Assembly (NCBI GenBank): GCA_041663145.1
Contig: JBAZRG010000001.1
Span: 254,984-318,983 of the forward strand
Direction: 5' to 3'
From: Minisyncoccota bacterium
Lineage (GTDB): Bacteria; Patescibacteriota; Minisyncoccia; Phycocordibacterales; PALSA-1337
DNA: 64,000 nucleotides
In this document: in pieces, positions 10,013 through 24,405 of the stretch
How positions within the stretch are numbered: the stretch's first letter is position 1
How the letters are laid out: each line of letters opens with the position of its first letter
Made by a program: the position numbers and the translations under genes
Notes under the pieces: model-generated
The model's database searches: none
The model's input: only the letters and a program-made list of their open reading frames with translations
What the model was told of the DNA's origin: nothing

Positions 10013-10049
10013 TGTGCCAAGGACCAGGATCGAAAGTTACCCCATCCCG
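10013..10049 (-). pseudogene. tRNA-Phe 3'-half fragment (partial duplicate of the adjacent tRNA-Phe)
   Basis: 22 nt identical to the 3' acceptor/T-arm of tRNA-Phe (TGTGCCAAGGACCAGGATCGAA on the plus strand), followed by a degenerate anticodon-stem copy; lies about 35 nt from the intact gene. Confidence 0.5.
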
Positions 10050-10084
10050 CAAGAATCGCAACTATGTGATTTCTAATAATGCTG

Positions 10085-10157
10085 TGCCAAGGACCAGGAT
10101 CGAACTGGTGACCCTTCCCTCTTCAGGGGAATGCTCTACCAACTGAGCTACCTTGGC
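10085..10157 (-). tRNA. tRNA-Phe (anticodon GAA)
   Basis: GCCAAGG acceptor, anticodon loop CTGAAGA, T-arm ACCAG-TTCGATC-CTGGT; no encoded CCA. Confidence 0.85.
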
Positions 10158-10540: not shown

Positions 10541-10581
10541 ACTACTTCGCAACCCTGTAACGCACAGGGTTGCTTCGTAGT
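10541..10581 (+). terminator. tRNA trailer hairpin (CTACTTCGCAA-hairpin motif shared with the tRNA-Gly trailer)
   Basis: GCAACCCTGT-aacgc-ACAGGGTTGC 10 bp stem immediately 3' of tRNA-Arg; no clear U-run. Confidence 0.35.
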
Positions 10582-10657
10582 GCGAGGCACCTTGTAATAT
10601 ACCCTTTAGTGTTATATAATGATTGGGTTAAAAAATCTTATCAATTAACAAAGATCT

Positions 10658-18063: not shown

Positions 18064-18300
18064 ATGAAAAACGTCACTATTTATTCGACTCCAACTTGTG
18101 TCTACTGCAATATGGCCAAGACTTTCTTCAAGGCCAACGATGTCGCCTTTACCGAATACGATGTCGCAAGTGATATCACCAAGCGCAAAGAGATGATCGA
18201 CAAAACAGGTCAGATGGGTGTGCCCGTCATCGATACCGGAAGTGAGATTATCGTCGGTTTTGACGAATCAAGACTCCGAACCATTCTCGGGATTAAGTAA
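18064..18300 (+). CDS. glutaredoxin-like protein (NrdH/thioredoxin fold, CVYC active site)
   Basis: 78 aa; YSTPTCVYCNMAK. Confidence 0.8.
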   Translation: MKNVTIYSTPTCVYCNMAKTFFKANDVAFTEYDVASDITKRKEMIDKTGQMGVPVIDTGSEIIVGFDESRLRTILGIK

Positions 18301-18320
18301 AGTCCGCAATGATCCGTATC

Positions 18321-18348
18321 AAAAATTGCCTAATGTGGGCAATTTTTT
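18321..18348 (+). terminator. rho-independent terminator of the glutaredoxin-like gene
   Basis: AAAAATTGCC-taatgtg-GGCAATTTTTT. Confidence 0.6.
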
Positions 18349-18414
18349 GGTAGAAATGAAAAGAGCCCGCAAGGTGAGTCGTAAACTCTTTCCTTGCAGA
18401 CTCTTGATTGTGGC

Positions 18415-18855
18415 TTAGGTTGACGCCTCAGGTTTACTGTTCAAGAACTTTTGAACAGTTAGTCCTCGAGCTTTCGCACAATATTCAACATCCTTCGGAA
18501 ACAGAGGTTCCTCGCGCCTGTCTACAAAGGATGAACCTACCCATACCATTTTAAATTCGCCGACGACTGTATTGCAAATGTGAGTGGATGAATCACTGCC
18601 CACTCTCACTACATCAGCCTTCTCGAACGAACCGTAATACCATTTTTCTTCAAGCTGAAACTGAATTCTGGCGAAGTCCGTAATTCGATATTCAATATCG
18701 AATTCATCGTCTCCGGCAAATATTCCTGCACGTCCCGTATTCATATCCAATTGGTAGAACGAGACGCGCTTGCCAATTTGGACTTCCAACGCTCTACGAA
18801 GCATCTCCATATGGATGCAAGATACTTCAGTAAGCACAGGGAATATTTTTCTCAT
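18415..18855 (-). CDS. hypothetical protein (first gene downstream of R1 promoter module)
   Basis: 146 aa from internal Met preceded by AGGAG; intermediate GC; no family recognised. Confidence 0.45.
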   Translation of the reverse strand: MRKIFPVLTEVSCIHMEMLRRALEVQIGKRVSFYQLDMNTGRAGIFAGDDEFDIEYRITDFARIQFQLEEKWYYGSFEKADVVRVGSDSSTHICNTVVGEFKMVWVGSSFVDRREEPLFPKDVEYCAKARGLTVQKFLNSKPEAST

Positions 18856-18922
18856 ATTTTCTCCTAATTCAAGGTGAAGGAGATTGATTTCTCCTAGTAT
18901 CACGTTCTGTGATTCCGAAAGT

Positions 18923-19030
18923 ACTATAGCATATGCATGAGTGGGTTGTCAATACTTTGACGATTCCGTCAAATATGTGCCATGGTATGGCTCTGTTAAG
19001 ACACTCTGTAAACCACGGTCGTGATTCGCC
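18923..19030 (-). repeat. R1: conserved ~105 nt promoter/operator module (copy 1 of 3)
   Basis: On minus strand TTGACA-18-TGnTATAGT; upstream palindrome TTTGACGATTCCGTCAAA; about 90% identical to R2 and R3. Confidence 0.6.
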
Positions 19031-19058
19031 TACTACCAATTATATTTACCATACGCAG

Positions 19059-19089
19059 AAAACCCACACGATTTCGTCATGTGGGTTTT
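19059..19089. terminator. bidirectional hairpin terminator
   Basis: AAAACCCACA-cgatttcgtca-TGTGGGTTTT with A-run/T-run on both sides. Confidence 0.5.
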
Positions 19090-19187
19090 GAATGTCAGCG
19101 GCTCATTCCATGCCGAGTGGTTAAACCACCAGATTTTTAGGGCTAAGGTCACAGTACACAAAGTGCATAGTAACAAAACCCATAATG

Positions 19188-19634
19188 CTAACTTGCGAAG
19201 CGCAGAGCCGGGCTGGCGTCGGGCCAGCGGCTGATAAGATCGTGCCAGCCTTGGACGACCTTGTCATCGAGCTCGCAGAGATACGGGACTTTGAGGTCGT
19301 CATCGTGGCGACTCATCACAACTCCCTTCCAGCCGCAGACATATTTACTCTTGAAGTATTTCCGAAAAAATACGATGCCTTTCTTTTGGATTTCTTCGAG
19401 ATCGCGCAGTCCCAAACAGGTCTTGAGTATGCCGTTCTTTTTGAGGTAGACATAGAGTTGGTTACCTCCTATTCGCTTATCTTGTTTCTGTTTGTCATGG
19501 AGCCACTGCTCCGTTTTGGTAATGTCAAACTCGGCAGGACCGGTGTTTTCCAACTCCGGATGCATAACCGTCTGCACCCAAACGGGATACGACGGACGAA
19601 TCGATCGATCTACGCAAATAATGGGATCGTTCAT
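19188..19634 (-). CDS. hypothetical protein, GC-rich cassette gene (about 58% GC)
   Basis: 148 aa; AAGGA RBS before ATG; lies downstream of R2 promoter; fully overlapping plus-strand ORF judged a GC artefact. Confidence 0.45.
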   Translation of the reverse strand: MNDPIICVDRSIRPSYPVWVQTVMHPELENTGPAEFDITKTEQWLHDKQKQDKRIGGNQLYVYLKKNGILKTCLGLRDLEEIQKKGIVFFRKYFKSKYVCGWKGVVMSRHDDDLKVPYLCELDDKVVQGWHDLISRWPDASPALRFAS

Positions 19635-19745
19635 TGACTTATCCTTTCTTTGGTTTGTTTTGGTTAAATCTAGCTCTCAAAAGACAAATTTCTACCTTTT
19701 CGGAGCTAGACTTAGCCGTTCTCAATGACCTGATCTTCTGTAATA

Positions 19746-19849
19746 AGTATAGCATTTCTAACACTATTTGTCAATACTTTGACGATTTCGTCAAATACAT
19801 GCGGTATGGCTCTGTTAAGACACTCTGTAAACCACGGTCGTGATTCGCC
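19746..19849 (-). repeat. R2: conserved promoter/operator module (copy 2 of 3)
   Basis: TTGACA-17-TGcTATACT on minus strand; perfect palindrome TTTGACGATTTCGTCAAA. Confidence 0.6.
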
Positions 19850-19871
19850 TCCTCTCCACATTCTCAATTAT

Positions 19872-20432
19872 TCAAAGTTCTGCAAGATCTCCTTTTATTA
19901 AATATTTTTCAATCTTGCTGACTTCTTCTGAGACTTTCTCTTTTCCTAACTCTGATTCCATCCAATTATTTCTATCAAAATCATACTGAGGTGACTTGTA
20001 CGGCGCAGCTTTGAGTATTATATGATTTGGTACATGCTTTTTTAATGTCATCAAAACCCTGCGAGAATGATAGTTTTTCATTATAGCCGTGATCGCATTT
20101 ACATTCTCCAAGCCAAGCTCTTTATCGATAAGGGCAAGTGAAAATAATACATTTTCGAGAGTGTTTGTTGATCTATTTTCAATGTAAATATCCTCAGATG
20201 CAATGCCTGATTTTATTGCTTCATTTGCCATTGACTCGCTTTCAACCATGCCTGAATTCTCATTAAGCCCACCACTAAAAATAATCTTTGGAACCAGTCC
20301 CCTTTTAAATATTTCTACAGCTTTCTCAACAGCACTTTTTTGCGCATTCCATGTACCAAATACCAAAGCAATATTGGCGGTAGGGTTTTCATCATCAATA
20401 AATACATATTTAGTTATTTCTTCATTTGTCAT
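19872..20432 (-). CDS. YdcF/DUF218 (ElyC/SanA-like) family protein
   Basis: 186 aa; SGG...ENRSTNTLEN pattern typical of DUF218. Confidence 0.65.
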   Translation of the reverse strand: MTNEEITKYVFIDDENPTANIALVFGTWNAQKSAVEKAVEIFKRGLVPKIIFSGGLNENSGMVESESMANEAIKSGIASEDIYIENRSTNTLENVLFSLALIDKELGLENVNAITAIMKNYHSRRVLMTLKKHVPNHIILKAAPYKSPQYDFDRNNWMESELGKEKVSEEVSKIEKYLIKGDLAEL

Positions 20433-20458
20433 GATTTGAGTATAACAATATTAGAGTG

Positions 20459-20510
20459 CCCGCACTACTTCGCAATTTGTCCTTTTAGACAAATTGCGAA
20501 GTAGTGCGGG
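20459..20510. repeat. perfect 23 bp-stem hairpin; its right arm plus TGCGGGT duplicates the tRNA-Gly trailer/3' end (DR-left)
   Basis: CCCGCACTACTTCGCAATTTGTC-ctttta-GACAAATTGCGAAGTAGTGCGGG; 39 nt (20473-20511) identical to 21933-21971. Confidence 0.8.
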
Positions 20511-20625
20511 TTGTGGTACGAAGTTGGATCCTTTTTGGCATTGAAGACTTTAGCATAAAAGGAAAACCGCATCGATCGAGATGCGGCTTGAAGATTTTAG
20601 CGAGTTCTTCAACTCGGTAGATAAA

Positions 20626-21246
20626 CTACTTGCGACGTTGGAAAATCCAACGGTCGTCAAACCGGGCAGACTGCTCGCTTGGACGAACAAAGGGTTGGTC
20701 ATCCTCGTGTTCGAACCTGATGAGTTCGAAAACACTCGGACGCCGAATTTTGTCGAACAAGGGCTCCATCGCAATCCGGACACACTCGTTTCGCGGCTGA
20801 TCCATGTATTGGAGACGCAATTCCAGTCCAATCTCGGCAGTGCAGAGATCAAGACCCTTCTTGGAAGCCGCCGCATAAAACTGTTGAACAGGGATTCTCT
20901 CGTTGCGGAAGTCGAGACCGACTTCAAGCGGCGAGGCCGAGACCAGTTCGACACAGGTCGGCTGCTTGCACATGGGAAACCGTTTGAGGGTAACCATGTC
21001 GAGCGCGTCCGATGTCAGGCCGCATTTGGCGAAGTTAAGGGCCGCGAGCAGTTCGCCAATGGTCTGAAATCTGCCAATCTTGACGTGGCGTCCAATACGG
21101 TCCCACAAGGACCATGCGGGTGCCGGAAAGCTATCTGTTACAAAAGCTTTTCCGGAAAGGAGTTTCTCAACTCCTTCGAGGCCGCCGATCATATTGATGA
21201 CCGCTTCCATGCAACCCCAATCCATTTTACCGTATTTCATCTGCAT
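20626..21246 (-). CDS. hypothetical protein, GC-rich cassette gene (about 52% GC)
   Basis: 206 aa; downstream of R3 promoter; alternative plus-strand ORF 20581..21261 cannot be fully excluded. Confidence 0.4.
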   Translation of the reverse strand: MQMKYGKMDWGCMEAVINMIGGLEGVEKLLSGKAFVTDSFPAPAWSLWDRIGRHVKIGRFQTIGELLAALNFAKCGLTSDALDMVTLKRFPMCKQPTCVELVSASPLEVGLDFRNERIPVQQFYAAASKKGLDLCTAEIGLELRLQYMDQPRNECVRIAMEPLFDKIRRPSVFELIRFEHEDDQPFVRPSEQSARFDDRWIFQRRK

Positions 21247-21406
21247 CCTTTCTTCACCTGATAGGTGACGAAATTCGTGCTGCCCGCACGTTGAGGGTGC
21301 CAGAGGACTAACACGTCAGTGTGTTTCGTCATAGCAGAGAATGGCCCAAACGAGCCGCTTTCTGCTATGACGAATGTAAGTAATTTCAATGACCTATACT
21401 GCTACA

Positions 21407-21513
21407 AGTATAGCATTTTTAACACTACTTGTCAATTCTTTGACGATTTCGTCAAATGTGTGTCGCCATAGGGCTCTGTTAAGCCACCTTGTAAACCACG
21501 GTCGTTATTCGCC
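21407..21513 (-). repeat. R3: conserved promoter/operator module (copy 3 of 3)
   Basis: TTGACA-17-TGcTATACT; TTTGACGATTTCGTCAAA palindrome. Confidence 0.6.
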
Positions 21514-21587
21514 CCCACTCGACTATCTTTGGAGGTTAGTTCCTTCTTCGCTCTTCGCAAAGCTCGGAGCTACGAAGGACAAGCACC

Positions 21588-21827
21588 TCAAACTAACCTC
21601 TTTCTGCTAAAAGCAAAGCCAGATCCTTTCTTCAAGTATTTTTCAAACTGTAAAGCTTTTGTTTTGTTATTAAAACAGCAGTACCACGATAGTTGCACAG
21701 GTCTTCTATCTTTTGTTGAATCAACTAATCCTTTGTTGTGATAACTTATTCGATTCTTCAGATTATCGGAAGAACCAACATAATAGGAGTTATCATGACA
21801 TTTAAGAATGTAAACGAAATGTGACAT
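21588..21827 (-). CDS. GIY-YIG nuclease superfamily protein (UPF0213/YhbQ-like)
   Basis: 79 aa; FVYILKC...YYVGSS...NRISYHNKG GIY-YIG signature. Confidence 0.8.
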   Translation of the reverse strand: MSHFVYILKCHDNSYYVGSSDNLKNRISYHNKGLVDSTKDRRPVQLSWYCCFNNKTKALQFEKYLKKGSGFAFSRKRLV

Positions 21828-21964
21828 ATTAAAATATTAACAGATCGTGTCCTTCTACGCTAAAGCTTCGAAGGACTACTTCGCAATTTTTATAATAATC
21901 TTCGTGATACTCATTGTGCCTGCACTTCGAAGCAATTTGTCCTTTTAGACAAATTGCGAAGTAG

Positions 21965-22035
21965 TGCGGGTAGCGAGAATCGAACTCGCGTCTCAACCTT
22001 GGGAAGGTCGCATTCTGCCACTAAACCATACCCGC
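21965..22035 (-). tRNA. tRNA-Gly (anticodon CCC)
   Basis: GCGGGTA acceptor, anticodon loop TTCCCAA, T-arm CGCGAG-TTCGATT-CTCGC; followed by conserved trailer hairpin. Confidence 0.8.
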
Positions 22036-22572: not shown

Positions 22573-24405
22573 TCAACCCTGTCTCATCATTTTGACGAAG
22601 ACATCTTGAGGGATATTGACTGAACCGTGAGCTTTCAAACGCTTACGACCTTCTTTTTGCTTTTCTCGAAGCTTCATTTTACGGGTGATATCACCTCCGG
22701 ACAACGTGGCGGCGGCGTCTTTCTTTTTACCTGAGATAGTTTCTGATGAAATAATTCTACCAAAAGCGCTTGCTTGGATTTTGAATGTAAAGAGTTCTCT
22801 AGGCATGACTTCATACAATTTCTTGACCATTGACTCTGCATCTTCTGGTACTCTCCTCCTCGAAACTACCCTACTAAAAGCCGGCACAACTTCATCAGCT
22901 ACCAAGATATCCATCCTCACCACATCAGCCGGTCGATTTTCGGAGATGTCATACGAGATCGAAGCATAACCAGAAGATATGCTTTTTACTTCATCAAAGA
23001 AATTTCGCATCAGTTCTCGTAGTGGCATGATGAGTGTGACCAATGATCGATTGTCACCAAAGTTTTCCGTAGCCAATACCTCTGCTTCATGTTCATAGAG
23101 TGACTTCATGAGACCACTCAAATATTTTGGTGGGGTGATGATCTTCATAGTGACCAATGGTTCGAATACTGCTTTTATCTCATGATCATCTGGAAATAGA
23201 GCCGGTGAATATATGGTAACTCGACGATCATCTTTCATTACGACTTCATAAGTGATCGATGGTTGAGTAACTACCAGGTTGAGGCTGAATTCCCTTCGCA
23301 GACGTTCGGTGACAATCTCCATATGAAGCATACCTAGAAAACCACATCGATAGCCTTTACCGAGTGTGCCAGACGCTTCTTCTTCATATGTAAAAGACGA
23401 ATCAGAAAGTCGCAAACGTCCCAGAGCTTGTCTCAATAGAGCTAGATCATCCTGACTTTCGGGATAGAGTGAAGCCCAAACCACCGGTCGTGGTGTCTGA
23501 TAACCAGAAAGTGGTGGCAAAGGATCACGAAGAGATGAAACTGTATCTCCAACCGAGGCGATACCAGGTTCCTTGATGCCAGTTACGATATAGCCGATCT
23601 CACCTTCGTCTAGAGAATCAGTTTCTGTATTATCAGGTTTGAATATTCCAACTTCTATAGATTCAAATTCTTTTTCGGCTACTTTGAAAATCAGTTTATC
23701 ATGTCTTTTGACACTACCATTCATAACACGGATATAAACTATAACTCCAGTATGATTGGAATATGAAAAATCAAAAATTATTGAACGGAAAAATGGCGAA
23801 TCGGCTTTCTCCGGATTTGTATCCGGCGAAGGCACTCTGTTTACTATTTCATCGAGCAAATGACCGACACCCTCCCCTGTTTTACCGGAAACTTTGAGGA
23901 CTTCTTCGACCGAACAATTCAATAACTGACAGACTTCGGTTACGACCTCATCTGTTCTAGCCAATGGAGAGTCTATCTTTGAGACAACCGGTATGATCTT
24001 TAGTCCGGCATCACGAGCCATATTGAGCGTAGTCAAAGTTTGAGCTTGGACGCCCTGAGTAGCATCTACGAGAAGAATAGAACCCTCAACAGCCTTGAGT
24101 GCCCTCGAGACCTCATATGAGAAGTCTATATGTCCGGGTGTATCGATCAAGTTCAGTTCAAATTCGGCACTTTCTGACATGGCTCCATCTGGACCTCTAT
24201 ATTTGGTATTCCATTTCATCCTTACAGGTTGCATCTTGATCGTGATTCCCCGTTCACGCTCGAGTTCCATGGAATCTAGGACCTGTTCCTGCATTTTTCG
24301 CTTTTCTATTGTTCCGGTTATCTCAAGCATCCTATCGGCAAGCGTGGACTTGCCGTGATCGATATGAGCGATAATGGAGAAATTACGTATGAAAGCGGGT
24401 TTCAT
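22573..24405 (-). CDS. lepA: translation elongation factor 4
   Basis: 610 aa; AHIDHGKST G1 motif, LepA C-terminal domain. Confidence 0.95.
   Translation of the reverse strand: MKPAFIRNFSIIAHIDHGKSTLADRMLEITGTIEKRKMQEQVLDSMELERERGITIKMQPVRMKWNTKYRGPDGAMSESAEFELNLIDTPGHIDFSYEVSRALKAVEGSILLVDATQGVQAQTLTTLNMARDAGLKIIPVVSKIDSPLARTDEVVTEVCQLLNCSVEEVLKVSGKTGEGVGHLLDEIVNRVPSPDTNPEKADSPFFRSIIFDFSYSNHTGVIVYIRVMNGSVKRHDKLIFKVAEKEFESIEVGIFKPDNTETDSLDEGEIGYIVTGIKEPGIASVGDTVSSLRDPLPPLSGYQTPRPVVWASLYPESQDDLALLRQALGRLRLSDSSFTYEEEASGTLGKGYRCGFLGMLHMEIVTERLRREFSLNLVVTQPSITYEVVMKDDRRVTIYSPALFPDDHEIKAVFEPLVTMKIITPPKYLSGLMKSLYEHEAEVLATENFGDNRSLVTLIMPLRELMRNFFDEVKSISSGYASISYDISENRPADVVRMDILVADEVVPAFSRVVSRRRVPEDAESMVKKLYEVMPRELFTFKIQASAFGRIISSETISGKKKDAAATLSGGDITRKMKLREKQKEGRKRLKAHGSVNIPQDVFVKMMRQG

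Follow-up and report, generated by a model that had tools for sequence, protein, structure and literature searches.

A recombinase-less module beside tRNA-Gly(CCC) in a Minisyncoccota genome: a probable composite remnant that retains the tail of a large serine recombinase gene

How can a 1.46 kb segment bounded by perfect direct repeats have come to lie next to a tRNA gene when it contains no gene for an enzyme that could have inserted it there? The segment in question adjoins the tRNA-Gly(CCC) gene in a 64,000-nt stretch of a Minisyncoccota bacterium (Patescibacteriota; assembly GCA_041663145.1, contig JBAZRG010000001.1, positions 254,984 to 318,983 of the forward strand). This whole 64 kb stretch is referred to here as the window, and all positions without a locus label are window positions; labels of the type L### denote relative loci or metagenome contigs, and labels of the type P#### denote proteins. 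A first-pass annotation had recognized in this segment the attL/attR architecture of a tRNA-targeting integrative element and, as there was no integrase, had proposed a decayed island or a satellite mobilized in trans. Here, we show that the 3' end of tRNA-Gly(CCC) is an attachment site of small integrative replicons of Patescibacteria, which have genes for a large serine recombinase (LSR) and a rolling-circle Rep of the G2P type. In our view, the 1.46 kb segment is probably a non-autonomous, composite remnant that makes up the part of a 3.67 kb accretion island closest to the tRNA.

The repeats are as the annotation had described them: the 39-mer CAATTTGTCCTTTTAGACAAATTGCGAAGTAGTGCGGGT is present in exactly two copies in the window, without a single mismatch and 1460 nt apart, and such a repeat was not obtained in any of 100 dinucleotide-preserving shuffles. 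The similarity between the two sites extends to 56 nt at 91% identity (20456-20511 and 21916-21971). According to both ARAGORN and Rfam, the right copy takes in the last 7-8 nt of the tRNA, which also agrees with the original description. The 39-nt repeat can be split into an 8-nt core, ACCCGCAC, which is found in the tRNA and at the end of a sequence that we refer to as RE, and 31 nt that belong to a hairpin. The att architecture that had been proposed therefore stands in so far as tRNA-Gly is an integration hot spot and the distal repeat belongs to a genuine att junction, but only 8 nt of the repeat are core and the other 31 nt are copies of a trailer hairpin. In the attachment site, both the B arm and the core come from the 3' end of tRNA-Gly(CCC), ...CTACCCGCAC.

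The nature of the distal junction is revealed by RE, which, when read on the tRNA strand, directly precedes the left repeat (..TATGCTAAAGTCTTCAATGCCAAAAAGGATCCAACTTCGTACCACAACCCGCAC) and shares its last 8 nt with the tRNA 3' end. A single copy of the 22-nt end of RE is present in the window (20504-20525, minus strand), and it matches L015 at 22 of 22 positions. RE is also located at the far end of the variable DNA 3' of tRNA-Gly in L011, L015, L036 and L062, the last two having two copies each, and an exact-pattern scan detected it in ~25 further metagenome contigs. Those RE contigs that also carry tRNA-Gly have the tRNA 0.5-2.4 kb upstream of RE, and other copies lie 3' of tRNA-Lys, tRNA-Val and tRNA-Arg genes, all of which end in ..GCAC. 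When loci are compared, the similarity around RE stops exactly after ..CCGCAC. When its complement is read in the one frame that continues ..TMCG, every RE yields LWYEVGT and hydrophobic residues and reaches a stop after 13-20 codons, and third-position changes between the copies are often synonymous. Moreover, the frame and the tail of the window RE match those of LSRs with an intact attP (P0039, P0032, P0074 and others). We also considered RE as a degenerate tRNA T-arm, which gave no convincing pairing, and we prefer the reading as a coding tail. Matches to a 21-nt pattern in viral contig L081 and in metagenome contigs L097/L100 and L099/L101, in which the outer arm is not conserved, were treated as chance.

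The counterpart of this tail is found in autonomous relatives integrated at the same site (L024, L082 and L098). In L024, a 485-aa LSR gene runs antisense into tRNA-Gly; the encoded protein ends in ..KTMCG, its stop codon lies within the acceptor end of the tRNA, and a REP_ORF2-G2P rolling-circle Rep gene adjoins it. The LSR paralogue of L082 has Resolvase, Recombinase and zinc ribbon domains. A database search with the L024 LSR returned >3372 homologues, and the best 120 of these were surveyed for their tails: 9 end in ..[ML]CG before the stop, as expected for the tRNA-Gly junction; 70 end in the antisense translation of a tRNA T-loop (..DSNQD..), that is, they are integrated beside other tRNAs; 8 have an intact tail of the form ..VW[YF]EVGT..; and the remaining 33 have other, mostly short tails. 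An intact LSR tail is present in L110, a contig of 5,962 nt that we consider circular because its ends overlap by 30 nt and the Rep gene is split over them. Integrative rolling-circle replicons combining a G2P/Phage_CRI-type Rep, an LSR and a conserved ~75-aa open reading frame (ORF) were observed in L024 (10963-13479), L098, L110 and L111. Taken as sequence comparisons, these data show that RE corresponds to the tail of an LSR gene, that attP is located within the last ~17 codons of that gene and that the tail is swapped on integration, with the displaced tail marking the far junction; recombination between attP and attB would presumably be catalyzed by the LSR itself. The recombinase family behind the junction is thus the LSR family, since RE reads as an LSR tail, and not that of the tyrosine integrases that had been expected.

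What lies on the other side of the core at this junction is a hairpin of a recurrent type. Its general form is GCAC followed by TRCTTCGC, a covarying stem-loop and GCTTCGNAGTGCnnGCAC; the outer boxes (GCAC-TRCTTCGC and GCTTCGNAGTGC) are conserved and the inner stem covaries. Besides the copy after tRNA-Gly, the window contains one after tRNA-Arg(CCT) (10543-10590, plus strand), in which GCAC is followed by TACTTCGC-AACCCTGT..ACAGGGTT-GCTTCGTAGTGCGAGGCAC and whose inner stem differs from that of the tRNA-Gly hairpin and covaries. Hairpins of the same type follow tRNA-Gly in L020, L022, L025 and L036 and tRNA-Tyr in L115, and they follow RE in the window, L036, L082 and L093. The L020 copy occupies an otherwise empty tRNA-Gly site and looks like an ordinary terminator. 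This distribution identifies the hairpin as a tRNA trailer motif, in line with the annotation, which had called the hairpin of the right copy the normal trailer of the tRNA, and the conserved CTTC/TTCG internal loop suggests that it may have a specific function in RNA processing, termination or recombination. Because the hairpin is a tRNA trailer motif, the junction of RE and the distal palindrome P1 matches what is expected of attR, namely an element arm, the core and a displaced host trailer. We therefore read P1 as the displaced native tRNA trailer, that is, the B' side of attR.

The two hairpins of the module are related but differ in detail. P1 is, as the annotation had stated, a perfect hairpin (arms of 23 nt each, 20459-20481 and 20488-20510, 100% complementary), which when folded as DNA has a 24-bp stem (-30.2 kcal/mol, z = -12.6). 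In the proximal, tRNA-adjacent hairpin, an internal loop divides the stem into two parts (-14 kcal/mol, z = -4.2). Its 3' arm is identical to that of the RE-adjacent hairpin of L082; P1 has its own, perfectly palindromic 3' arm, unlike this L082 variant. A third, partial copy of a hairpin arm, ACTACTTCGCAATTT, is located at 21875-21889 between the proximal hairpin and the start of the GIY-YIG gene and is identical to 20464-20478 over 15 of 15 nt; a similar tandem duplicate of the hairpin 3' arm is found in L115. At the gathering threshold, Rfam returned only tRNAs and nothing for the trailer hairpin, and matches at E<1 were of the microRNA type, fell on the perfect palindrome and were judged spurious. 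Two other roles were considered for the hairpin. That it is the rolling-circle origin of the helper elements is unsupported, the motif being absent from L024, L098, L110 and L111, and that its start encodes the end of the LSR (the P' arm) was rejected, as a stop is read from the sequence in the relevant frame.

How far does the inserted DNA extend? A search with LepA (22573-24405) retrieved Paceibacteria/'Taylorbacteria'-type Patescibacteria with up to 82% identity, and the site was compared in 80 related loci. The order LepA, DivIC-like gene, tRNA-Gly(CCC) is retained in ~50 of them. In four genomes, tRNA-Gly is separated by 2-6 nt from a convergent glutaredoxin gene and in another 13 by 50-143 nt; this spacing ranges up to 4.7 kb in the remaining relatives and is 3666 nt in the window. 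The empty site foreseen by the annotation, in which tRNA-Gly would be followed directly by YdcF, was not encountered: the insert-free site in these 17 relatives is tRNA followed by glutaredoxin, and YdcF and the three ORFs driven by the R3 modules of the window are absent from this locus in all 80 relatives, the GIY-YIG gene being present there in a few. Since tRNA-Gly of the relatives adjoins the glutaredoxin gene and none of them has YdcF at this place, YdcF is cargo as well, the variable island comprises 3.67 kb (18301-21963), of which the 1.46 kb module forms the unit nearest to the tRNA (Table 1).

Table 1. Features of the island and its surroundings in the window.
Feature	Position	Strand	Remarks
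tRNA-Gly(CCC)	21964/21965-22035	-	ARAGORN; Rfam RF00005, 65.8 bits
Right (tRNA-proximal) 39-nt repeat copy	21933-21971		8 nt of tRNA 3' end (core) and 31 nt of trailer hairpin
Proximal trailer hairpin	21916-21967	-	GCAC, then TACTTCGC-stem-loop-GCTTCGAAGTGCAGGCAC; imperfect two-part stem
GIY-YIG gene	21588-21827	-	79 aa, stand-alone catalytic domain; PF01541, E = 2.8e-18; 32.5% GC
R3c module	21381-21532	-	Conserved upstream block, palindrome TTGACGAAATCGTCAA, strong sigma-70 promoter
5'-untranslated region (UTR) hairpin	21325-21374	-	Between R3c promoter and GC-rich gene; 21-nt arms, 86% complementary
GC-rich gene	20626-21246	-	53% GC versus 42% for the window; no assigned function
Intrinsic terminator of GC-rich gene	20564-20589	-	Between GC-rich gene and RE
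RE	20505-20558	+	Last 17 codons and stop of LSR gene, CGLWYEVGSFLALKTLA before the stop; minus strand relative to the tRNA
Left (distal) 39-nt repeat copy	20473-20511		8-nt core that ends RE and 31 nt of displaced trailer hairpin
P1	20459-20510		Perfect 23-24 bp palindrome around left repeat
Older island part	18301-20458	-	YdcF/DUF218 (19872-20432); R3b and ORF148; R3a and ORF162
R3b	19717-19866	-	Drives ORF148 (19188-19634)
R3a	18913-19049	-	Drives ORF162 (18415-18903)
Glutaredoxin gene	18067-18300	+	Convergent; far edge of island

The contents that had been listed for the module, i.e., a GC-rich gene, an R3 promoter module and a GIY-YIG gene, are all located between the repeats, and they belong to two different units. 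R3 is a module of ~150 nt of which the window contains three copies, all within the island and each placed before a different, unrelated ORF. Full copies are also present in L015 (13130-13280), L103 and L109, again each before a different ORF that is followed by RE. The three R3-driven ORFs of the window are related neither to each other nor to the cargo ORFs of L015, L103, L109 and L062. The R3c promoter (21435-21407) has the structure TTGACA-17-TATACT with a TG extended -10 and matches the sigma-70 consensus at 11 of 12 positions, and the 16-bp palindrome that overlaps this consensus promoter is probably an operator. We examined R3 as a further coding relic as well; its substitutions are not codon-periodic and it is in frame with the upstream gene only in L015, and R3 was therefore left as a promoter/operator module. 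The long 5'-UTR hairpin of R3b is shared by L015, L062 and L109.

The succession of R3, a variable ORF, a terminator and RE recurs in L015, L103 and L109, and in L109 this cargo slot adjoins a remnant of an LSR 3' end after tRNA-Arg(CCG). By comparison with these loci, the distal two-thirds of the module (R3c, UTR hairpin, ORF, terminator and RE) are the usual attP-proximal cargo slot of LSR elements, and the proximal third (hairpin and GIY-YIG gene) is a separate unit. The idea of a single tRNA-targeting element thus needs to be amended: the attR of an LSR element is there, but the module is a composite of the hairpin plus GIY-YIG unit and the LSR cargo slot.

The gene in the cargo slot likely starts at 21240 and would then encode a protein of 204 aa. 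In this form it is 100% identical to protein P0121 of a Candidatus Paceibacterota metagenome-assembled genome; look-ups for exact counterparts of four window proteins returned no match. It belongs to a family of ~200-aa proteins with >1500 cluster representatives, 136 of them at E<1e-10, which have a conserved LCPAEVGPQLRLQYxDQPxGE block and an invariant cysteine. The GC-rich cargo genes of the island are accompanied by near full-length ORFs on the opposite, plus strand (19185-19637, 150 aa, and 20581-21261, 226 aa). Because promoter, ribosome-binding site and terminator are all located on the minus strand, we read these plus-strand ORFs as shadow ORFs; it should be noted that an annotation might easily choose the wrong strand here. 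Searches of all cargo ORFs with PADLOC and PHROGs returned nothing useful.

The GIY-YIG gene encodes little more than a catalytic domain. It has 48 homologues, nearly all of 78-81 aa, and neither the 79-aa protein nor these homologues have an added DNA-binding domain that would provide site specificity. As a unit with the hairpin, it is found after tRNA-Gly in L036 (68% protein identity), after RE in the close relative L082 (91%) and after tRNA-Tyr in L115 (77%). In L116 (3649-4378), a small GIY-YIG gene with 62% identity is located directly 3' of a transfer-messenger RNA (tmRNA) gene, behind a hairpin of the TTCGC-stem-GCTTCG type. The genome represented by L116 does not look like that of a Patescibacterium, its neighboring genes including those for a sigma-54 activator and an aldehyde ferredoxin oxidoreductase, and for this reason the pairing of mini GIY-YIG genes with tRNA-like 3' ends may be widespread. 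The annotation had regarded the nuclease as a homing or mobility module. The gene does recur with its hairpin after other tRNA and tmRNA genes (L115, L116), but the protein consists of the catalytic domain only and any role in mobility would be putative.

As the annotation had stated, the module contains no integrase: a domain search of its ORFs detected no integrase or recombinase domain, and in the module and the rest of the 64 kb window there is no similarity to an LSR or Rep, not even a remnant, besides RE as the single relic of an LSR tail. Together with the autonomous relatives that occupy the same site (L024, L082, L098), this puts the module in the class that had been suggested, a decayed island or satellite without a recombinase.

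How could such a module have formed? Integration of an LSR element at the 8-nt core would bring the body of the LSR gene beside the tRNA, which would supply the stop codon, and would bring the LSR tail (RE) to the far end of the element, beside the displaced tRNA trailer. The far junction in the window has exactly this order, with RE, the core and the trailer hairpin P1 in succession. We propose that an LSR element entered at tRNA-Gly and would thereby have pushed away both the older cargo (YdcF, R3b and R3a) and the native trailer, of which P1 is the present form. The LSR/Rep part would since have been lost, and the hairpin plus GIY-YIG unit would have come to lie on the tRNA-proximal side. 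The order in the window (tRNA, hairpin, GIY-YIG, cargo, RE, hairpin) is a circular permutation of the order cargo, RE, hairpin, GIY-YIG in L082. A single Campbell-type crossover in the shared core and hairpin, between a circle containing RE, hairpin and GIY-YIG and a chromosomal tRNA with its hairpin, would produce both the observed structure and the identity over 39 nt. This is the most economical origin, and the crossover could have been homologous or site-specific, i.e., mediated by the LSR. The module would at present be immobile, save through its repeats or through an LSR acting in trans or in cis.

With respect to att features, the locus has a repeat that overlaps the tRNA and an attR with the P arm of an LSR beside the displaced flank, and it lacks an LSR gene in the window and an attL with the P' arm (the LSR 3' coding end) beside the tRNA. 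With respect to cis-mobilizable elements (CIMEs), it is bounded by att sites of an autonomous element, as judged from relatives L024, L082, L098 and L110, and has no recombination or replication genes of its own.

Several observations weigh against the view that the module is such a remnant. The junction next to the tRNA consists of tRNA and hairpin and not of the expected B and P' arms, i.e., tRNA and LSR 3' end, as in L024, L058 and L092; because of this, a second, unobserved event has to be assumed. The LSR-less, RE-bounded modules found elsewhere have diverse left ends that abut the core precisely, which random decay alone would not predict. The GIY-YIG gene of L036 is 68% identical to that of the window, compared with 77% for LepA, and the gene could have been resident for a long time and need not have arrived recently. 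Among the best 120 LSR matches, there was no attP-intact LSR with the exact tRNA-Gly-type tail (..MCGLWYEVGT..). Finally, the absence of an LSR applies to the 64 kb of the window, and the genome may have one elsewhere.

The module may instead be a satellite or cassette that is still active, comparable to CIMEs or integron cassettes, and that is moved by an LSR element in cis or in trans, a reading that we consider possible but rather unlikely. Units would then stack in arrays at tRNA 3' ends, with the core and hairpin as recombination site, and in the cis route accretion beside an LSR element would be followed by joint excision and then by excision of the helper alone. Most of the complete tRNA-to-RE modules do lack an LSR (those of the window, L011 and L015, two each in L036 and L062/L091, and further ones in L083/L090, L087, L095, L096/L108 and L103), and their left ends are mutually unrelated yet abut the core exactly, as solo excision of the helper would yield. 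Tandem REs (L036, L062, L093), accreted arrays (L082, L036, L062) and the presence of RE modules after tRNA-Lys, tRNA-Val and tRNA-Arg genes with the same ..GCAC end are also consistent with it, although it should be noted that the conservation of RE stems in part from the exact-pattern search by which loci were found and that some REs are mutated, with premature stops in L015 and L062. One and the same unit of MazF and RE is found together with an LSR in L082, alone after tRNA-Gly in L083/L090 and 3' of tRNA-Val in L087. The problem for mobility is that serine recombinases normally need both attP half-sites and the modules have no conserved P' arm. Nor has a circular junction been seen: Logan contig L112 (1480 nt) reaches from one repeat to the other and overlaps itself by 20 nt, but it ends inside the repeats, as is equally expected of any repeat-bounded assembly. 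The cargo is of a kind typical of cassettes (MazF, MNT, Fic, NYN, Bro-N, retropepsin-like, GIY-YIG), and the conserved outer boxes, covarying inner stems and conserved internal loop of the hairpins are loosely reminiscent of attC, but cassettes with their own promoters are unlike those of integrons and no IntI-type enzyme is present.

In its most far-reaching form, this idea would imply an undescribed cassette system of Patescibacteria, in which promoter-bearing units that end in a ~55-nt LSR tail relic are stacked at the 3' ends of ..GCAC tRNAs and are shuffled by LSR-encoding rolling-circle replicons, either through accretion and solo excision or in trans, with the trailer hairpin as a structured part of the recombination site and the module of the window as a live cassette. 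We put this forward as a speculation to which we give little credence at present.

A third explanation, which we regard as improbable, attributes the duplication to the nuclease: GIY-YIG would cut at or near trailer hairpins adjoining GCAC, and repair would copy the hairpin and gene as a unit, a form of intronless homing that would generate the 39-nt repeat. The positions of the unit directly after tRNA-Gly (window and L036), tRNA-Tyr (L115), tmRNA (L116) and RE (L082) would fit, as would the tRNA-Gly with hairpin but without the gene in L020, which makes up a presence/absence pattern, and the partial 3'-arm duplicates between hairpin and gene in the window (21875-21889) and in L115. However, the 79-aa protein does not have the DNA-binding domain that gives homing endonucleases their specificity, and homing leaves unexplained both RE and the cargo between the GIY-YIG gene and RE. 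Moreover, P1 is followed by YdcF, the RE-adjacent hairpin of L036 by NYN, and the tRNA-Arg hairpin of the window has no GIY-YIG gene, and the divergence of the gene between genomes is comparable to that of host genes, which fits vertical descent.

That slippage or unequal crossing-over simply duplicated the tRNA 3' end with its trailer in place, without any mobile element, is very improbable and already largely refuted by RE, for although the repeats are direct, close (1460 nt) and perfect over 39 nt, and template switching can create a perfect palindrome such as P1, the conserved LSR-tail motif directly precedes the left repeat and is found at the same type of junction in dozens of genomes, the entire interval is missing in relatives, and it contains a gene of 53% GC in a genome of 42% GC.

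With the composite remnant as the preferred reading, the closest comparison in terms of genetic organization is with CIMEs and tRNA islets left behind by integrative elements, such as those in the accretion model of ICESt3 and CIMEs in Streptococcus thermophilus. As in CIMEs, the window has an att-type repeat at the tRNA 3' end and a far copy of it, no recombinase in between and autonomous relatives at the same site; units stack in tandem, and a core carried by the element restores the tRNA. The differences are that the recombinase is an LSR instead of a tyrosine integrase, that the core is 8 nt and the remaining repeat is the native trailer hairpin, and that the host, a Patescibacterium, has a very small genome and the helpers are rolling-circle replicons of ~4-6 kb and not conjugative elements.

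LSR-mediated integration is known from Bxb1, phiC31 and A118, and the common core of Bxb1 is 8 bp. The LSRs described here resemble these enzymes in having Resolvase, Recombinase and zinc ribbon domains (L082) and in using a short core without long target duplication, and integration is likewise directional, with distinct attL and attR. In contrast to the phage systems, attP is located inside the 3' coding end of the recombinase gene itself, so that the C-terminal tail is swapped on integration, and the target is a tRNA 3' end and not a protein-coding gene. In this respect, the nearest analogy is provided by the integrases of SSV1-type archaeal viruses, which are tyrosine recombinases whose gene contains attP and is split into two large parts. 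In both cases attP lies within the recombinase gene, integration into a tRNA gene splits that gene and the displaced fragment marks the far junction; here, however, the exchange is confined to ~17 C-terminal codons of a serine recombinase gene, which remains essentially full length when integrated, the LSR of L024 having 485 aa when integrated versus ~500 aa inferred for its excised form with the RE-encoded tail added.

There is also some likeness to integron cassette arrays, in that units of one or two genes (toxins, nucleases and genes of unknown function) are stacked at one fixed insertion point and have a conserved end site, and in that attC sites likewise form hairpins with conserved outer boxes and variable centers. 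Unlike in integrons, no IntI or other tyrosine recombinase was found, the units have strong promoters of their own, their end is an LSR coding relic and their insertion point is a tRNA 3' end. Known free-standing homing endonuclease genes of the GIY-YIG family include those of the Seg proteins of phage T4 and of the I-TevI type. The gene of the window shares with them the catalytic domain, the intergenic location and the presence or absence at a conserved site, but it differs in encoding only 79 aa without a DNA-binding domain and in always being accompanied by the leader hairpin directly after a tRNA or tmRNA gene. A literature search yielded no description of a serine recombinase with attP in its own 3' coding tail or with a tRNA 3' end as target, and none for serine recombinases and tRNA in Patescibacteria, also known as the candidate phyla radiation (CPR), or for a GIY-YIG gene 3' of a tRNA. 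We know of no account of an LSR that has both its attP in its own 3' tail and a tRNA 3' end as target. These two traits of the element family therefore appear undescribed.

Other tRNA genes and other inserts at tRNA-Gly deserve mention. The last 20 nt of tRNA-Phe(GAA) (10014-10157 with its trailer, minus strand), TCGATCCTGGTCCTTGGCAC, are repeated 50 nt downstream of the gene, which makes a second att-like scar in the window, one of the type that comprises the tRNA between its T-loop and its 3' end. GC-rich mini-insertions of ~150 nt are located directly after tRNA-Gly in L005, L010, L021, L029, L041, L050 and L096/L108 and after RE in L094 and L104. Each is bounded by a direct repeat, 18-20 nt in length (53 nt in L029), of the tRNA part that begins at the T-loop and extends to the 3' end, and contains a long hairpin as well as an inverted T-arm copy, which covaries with the tRNA of the host. 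Because these mini-insertions are homologous across genomes, they cannot be regarded as random scars. Another recurrent cargo, found directly after tRNA-Gly or before RE, is a gene for a retropepsin-like aspartyl protease (L015, 12526-13229; L103, 6485-6883; L096, 9201-9611), which is preceded by an ORF of ~66 aa and a GTCAATATTGAC palindrome.

In summary, the repeat-bounded module is an ordinary remnant or possible satellite and not a complete element, and its value lies in the att junction that it has preserved. Patescibacteria (CPR) have tiny genomes for which few mobile elements have been described. Our results identify tRNA-Gly(CCC) and other tRNAs ending in ..GCAC as an integration hot spot for small rolling-circle replicons that carry an LSR, and the RE tail relic provides a simple sequence marker of past integrations. 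This explains short orphan 'ORFs' and odd repeats that cluster after tRNA genes in these genomes. In addition, the junctions constitute natural attB/attP pairs for a recombinase family of >3000 members, which could be used as genetic tools in organisms that have none. The preserved junction thereby exposes a large and apparently uncharacterized integration system in Patescibacteria.

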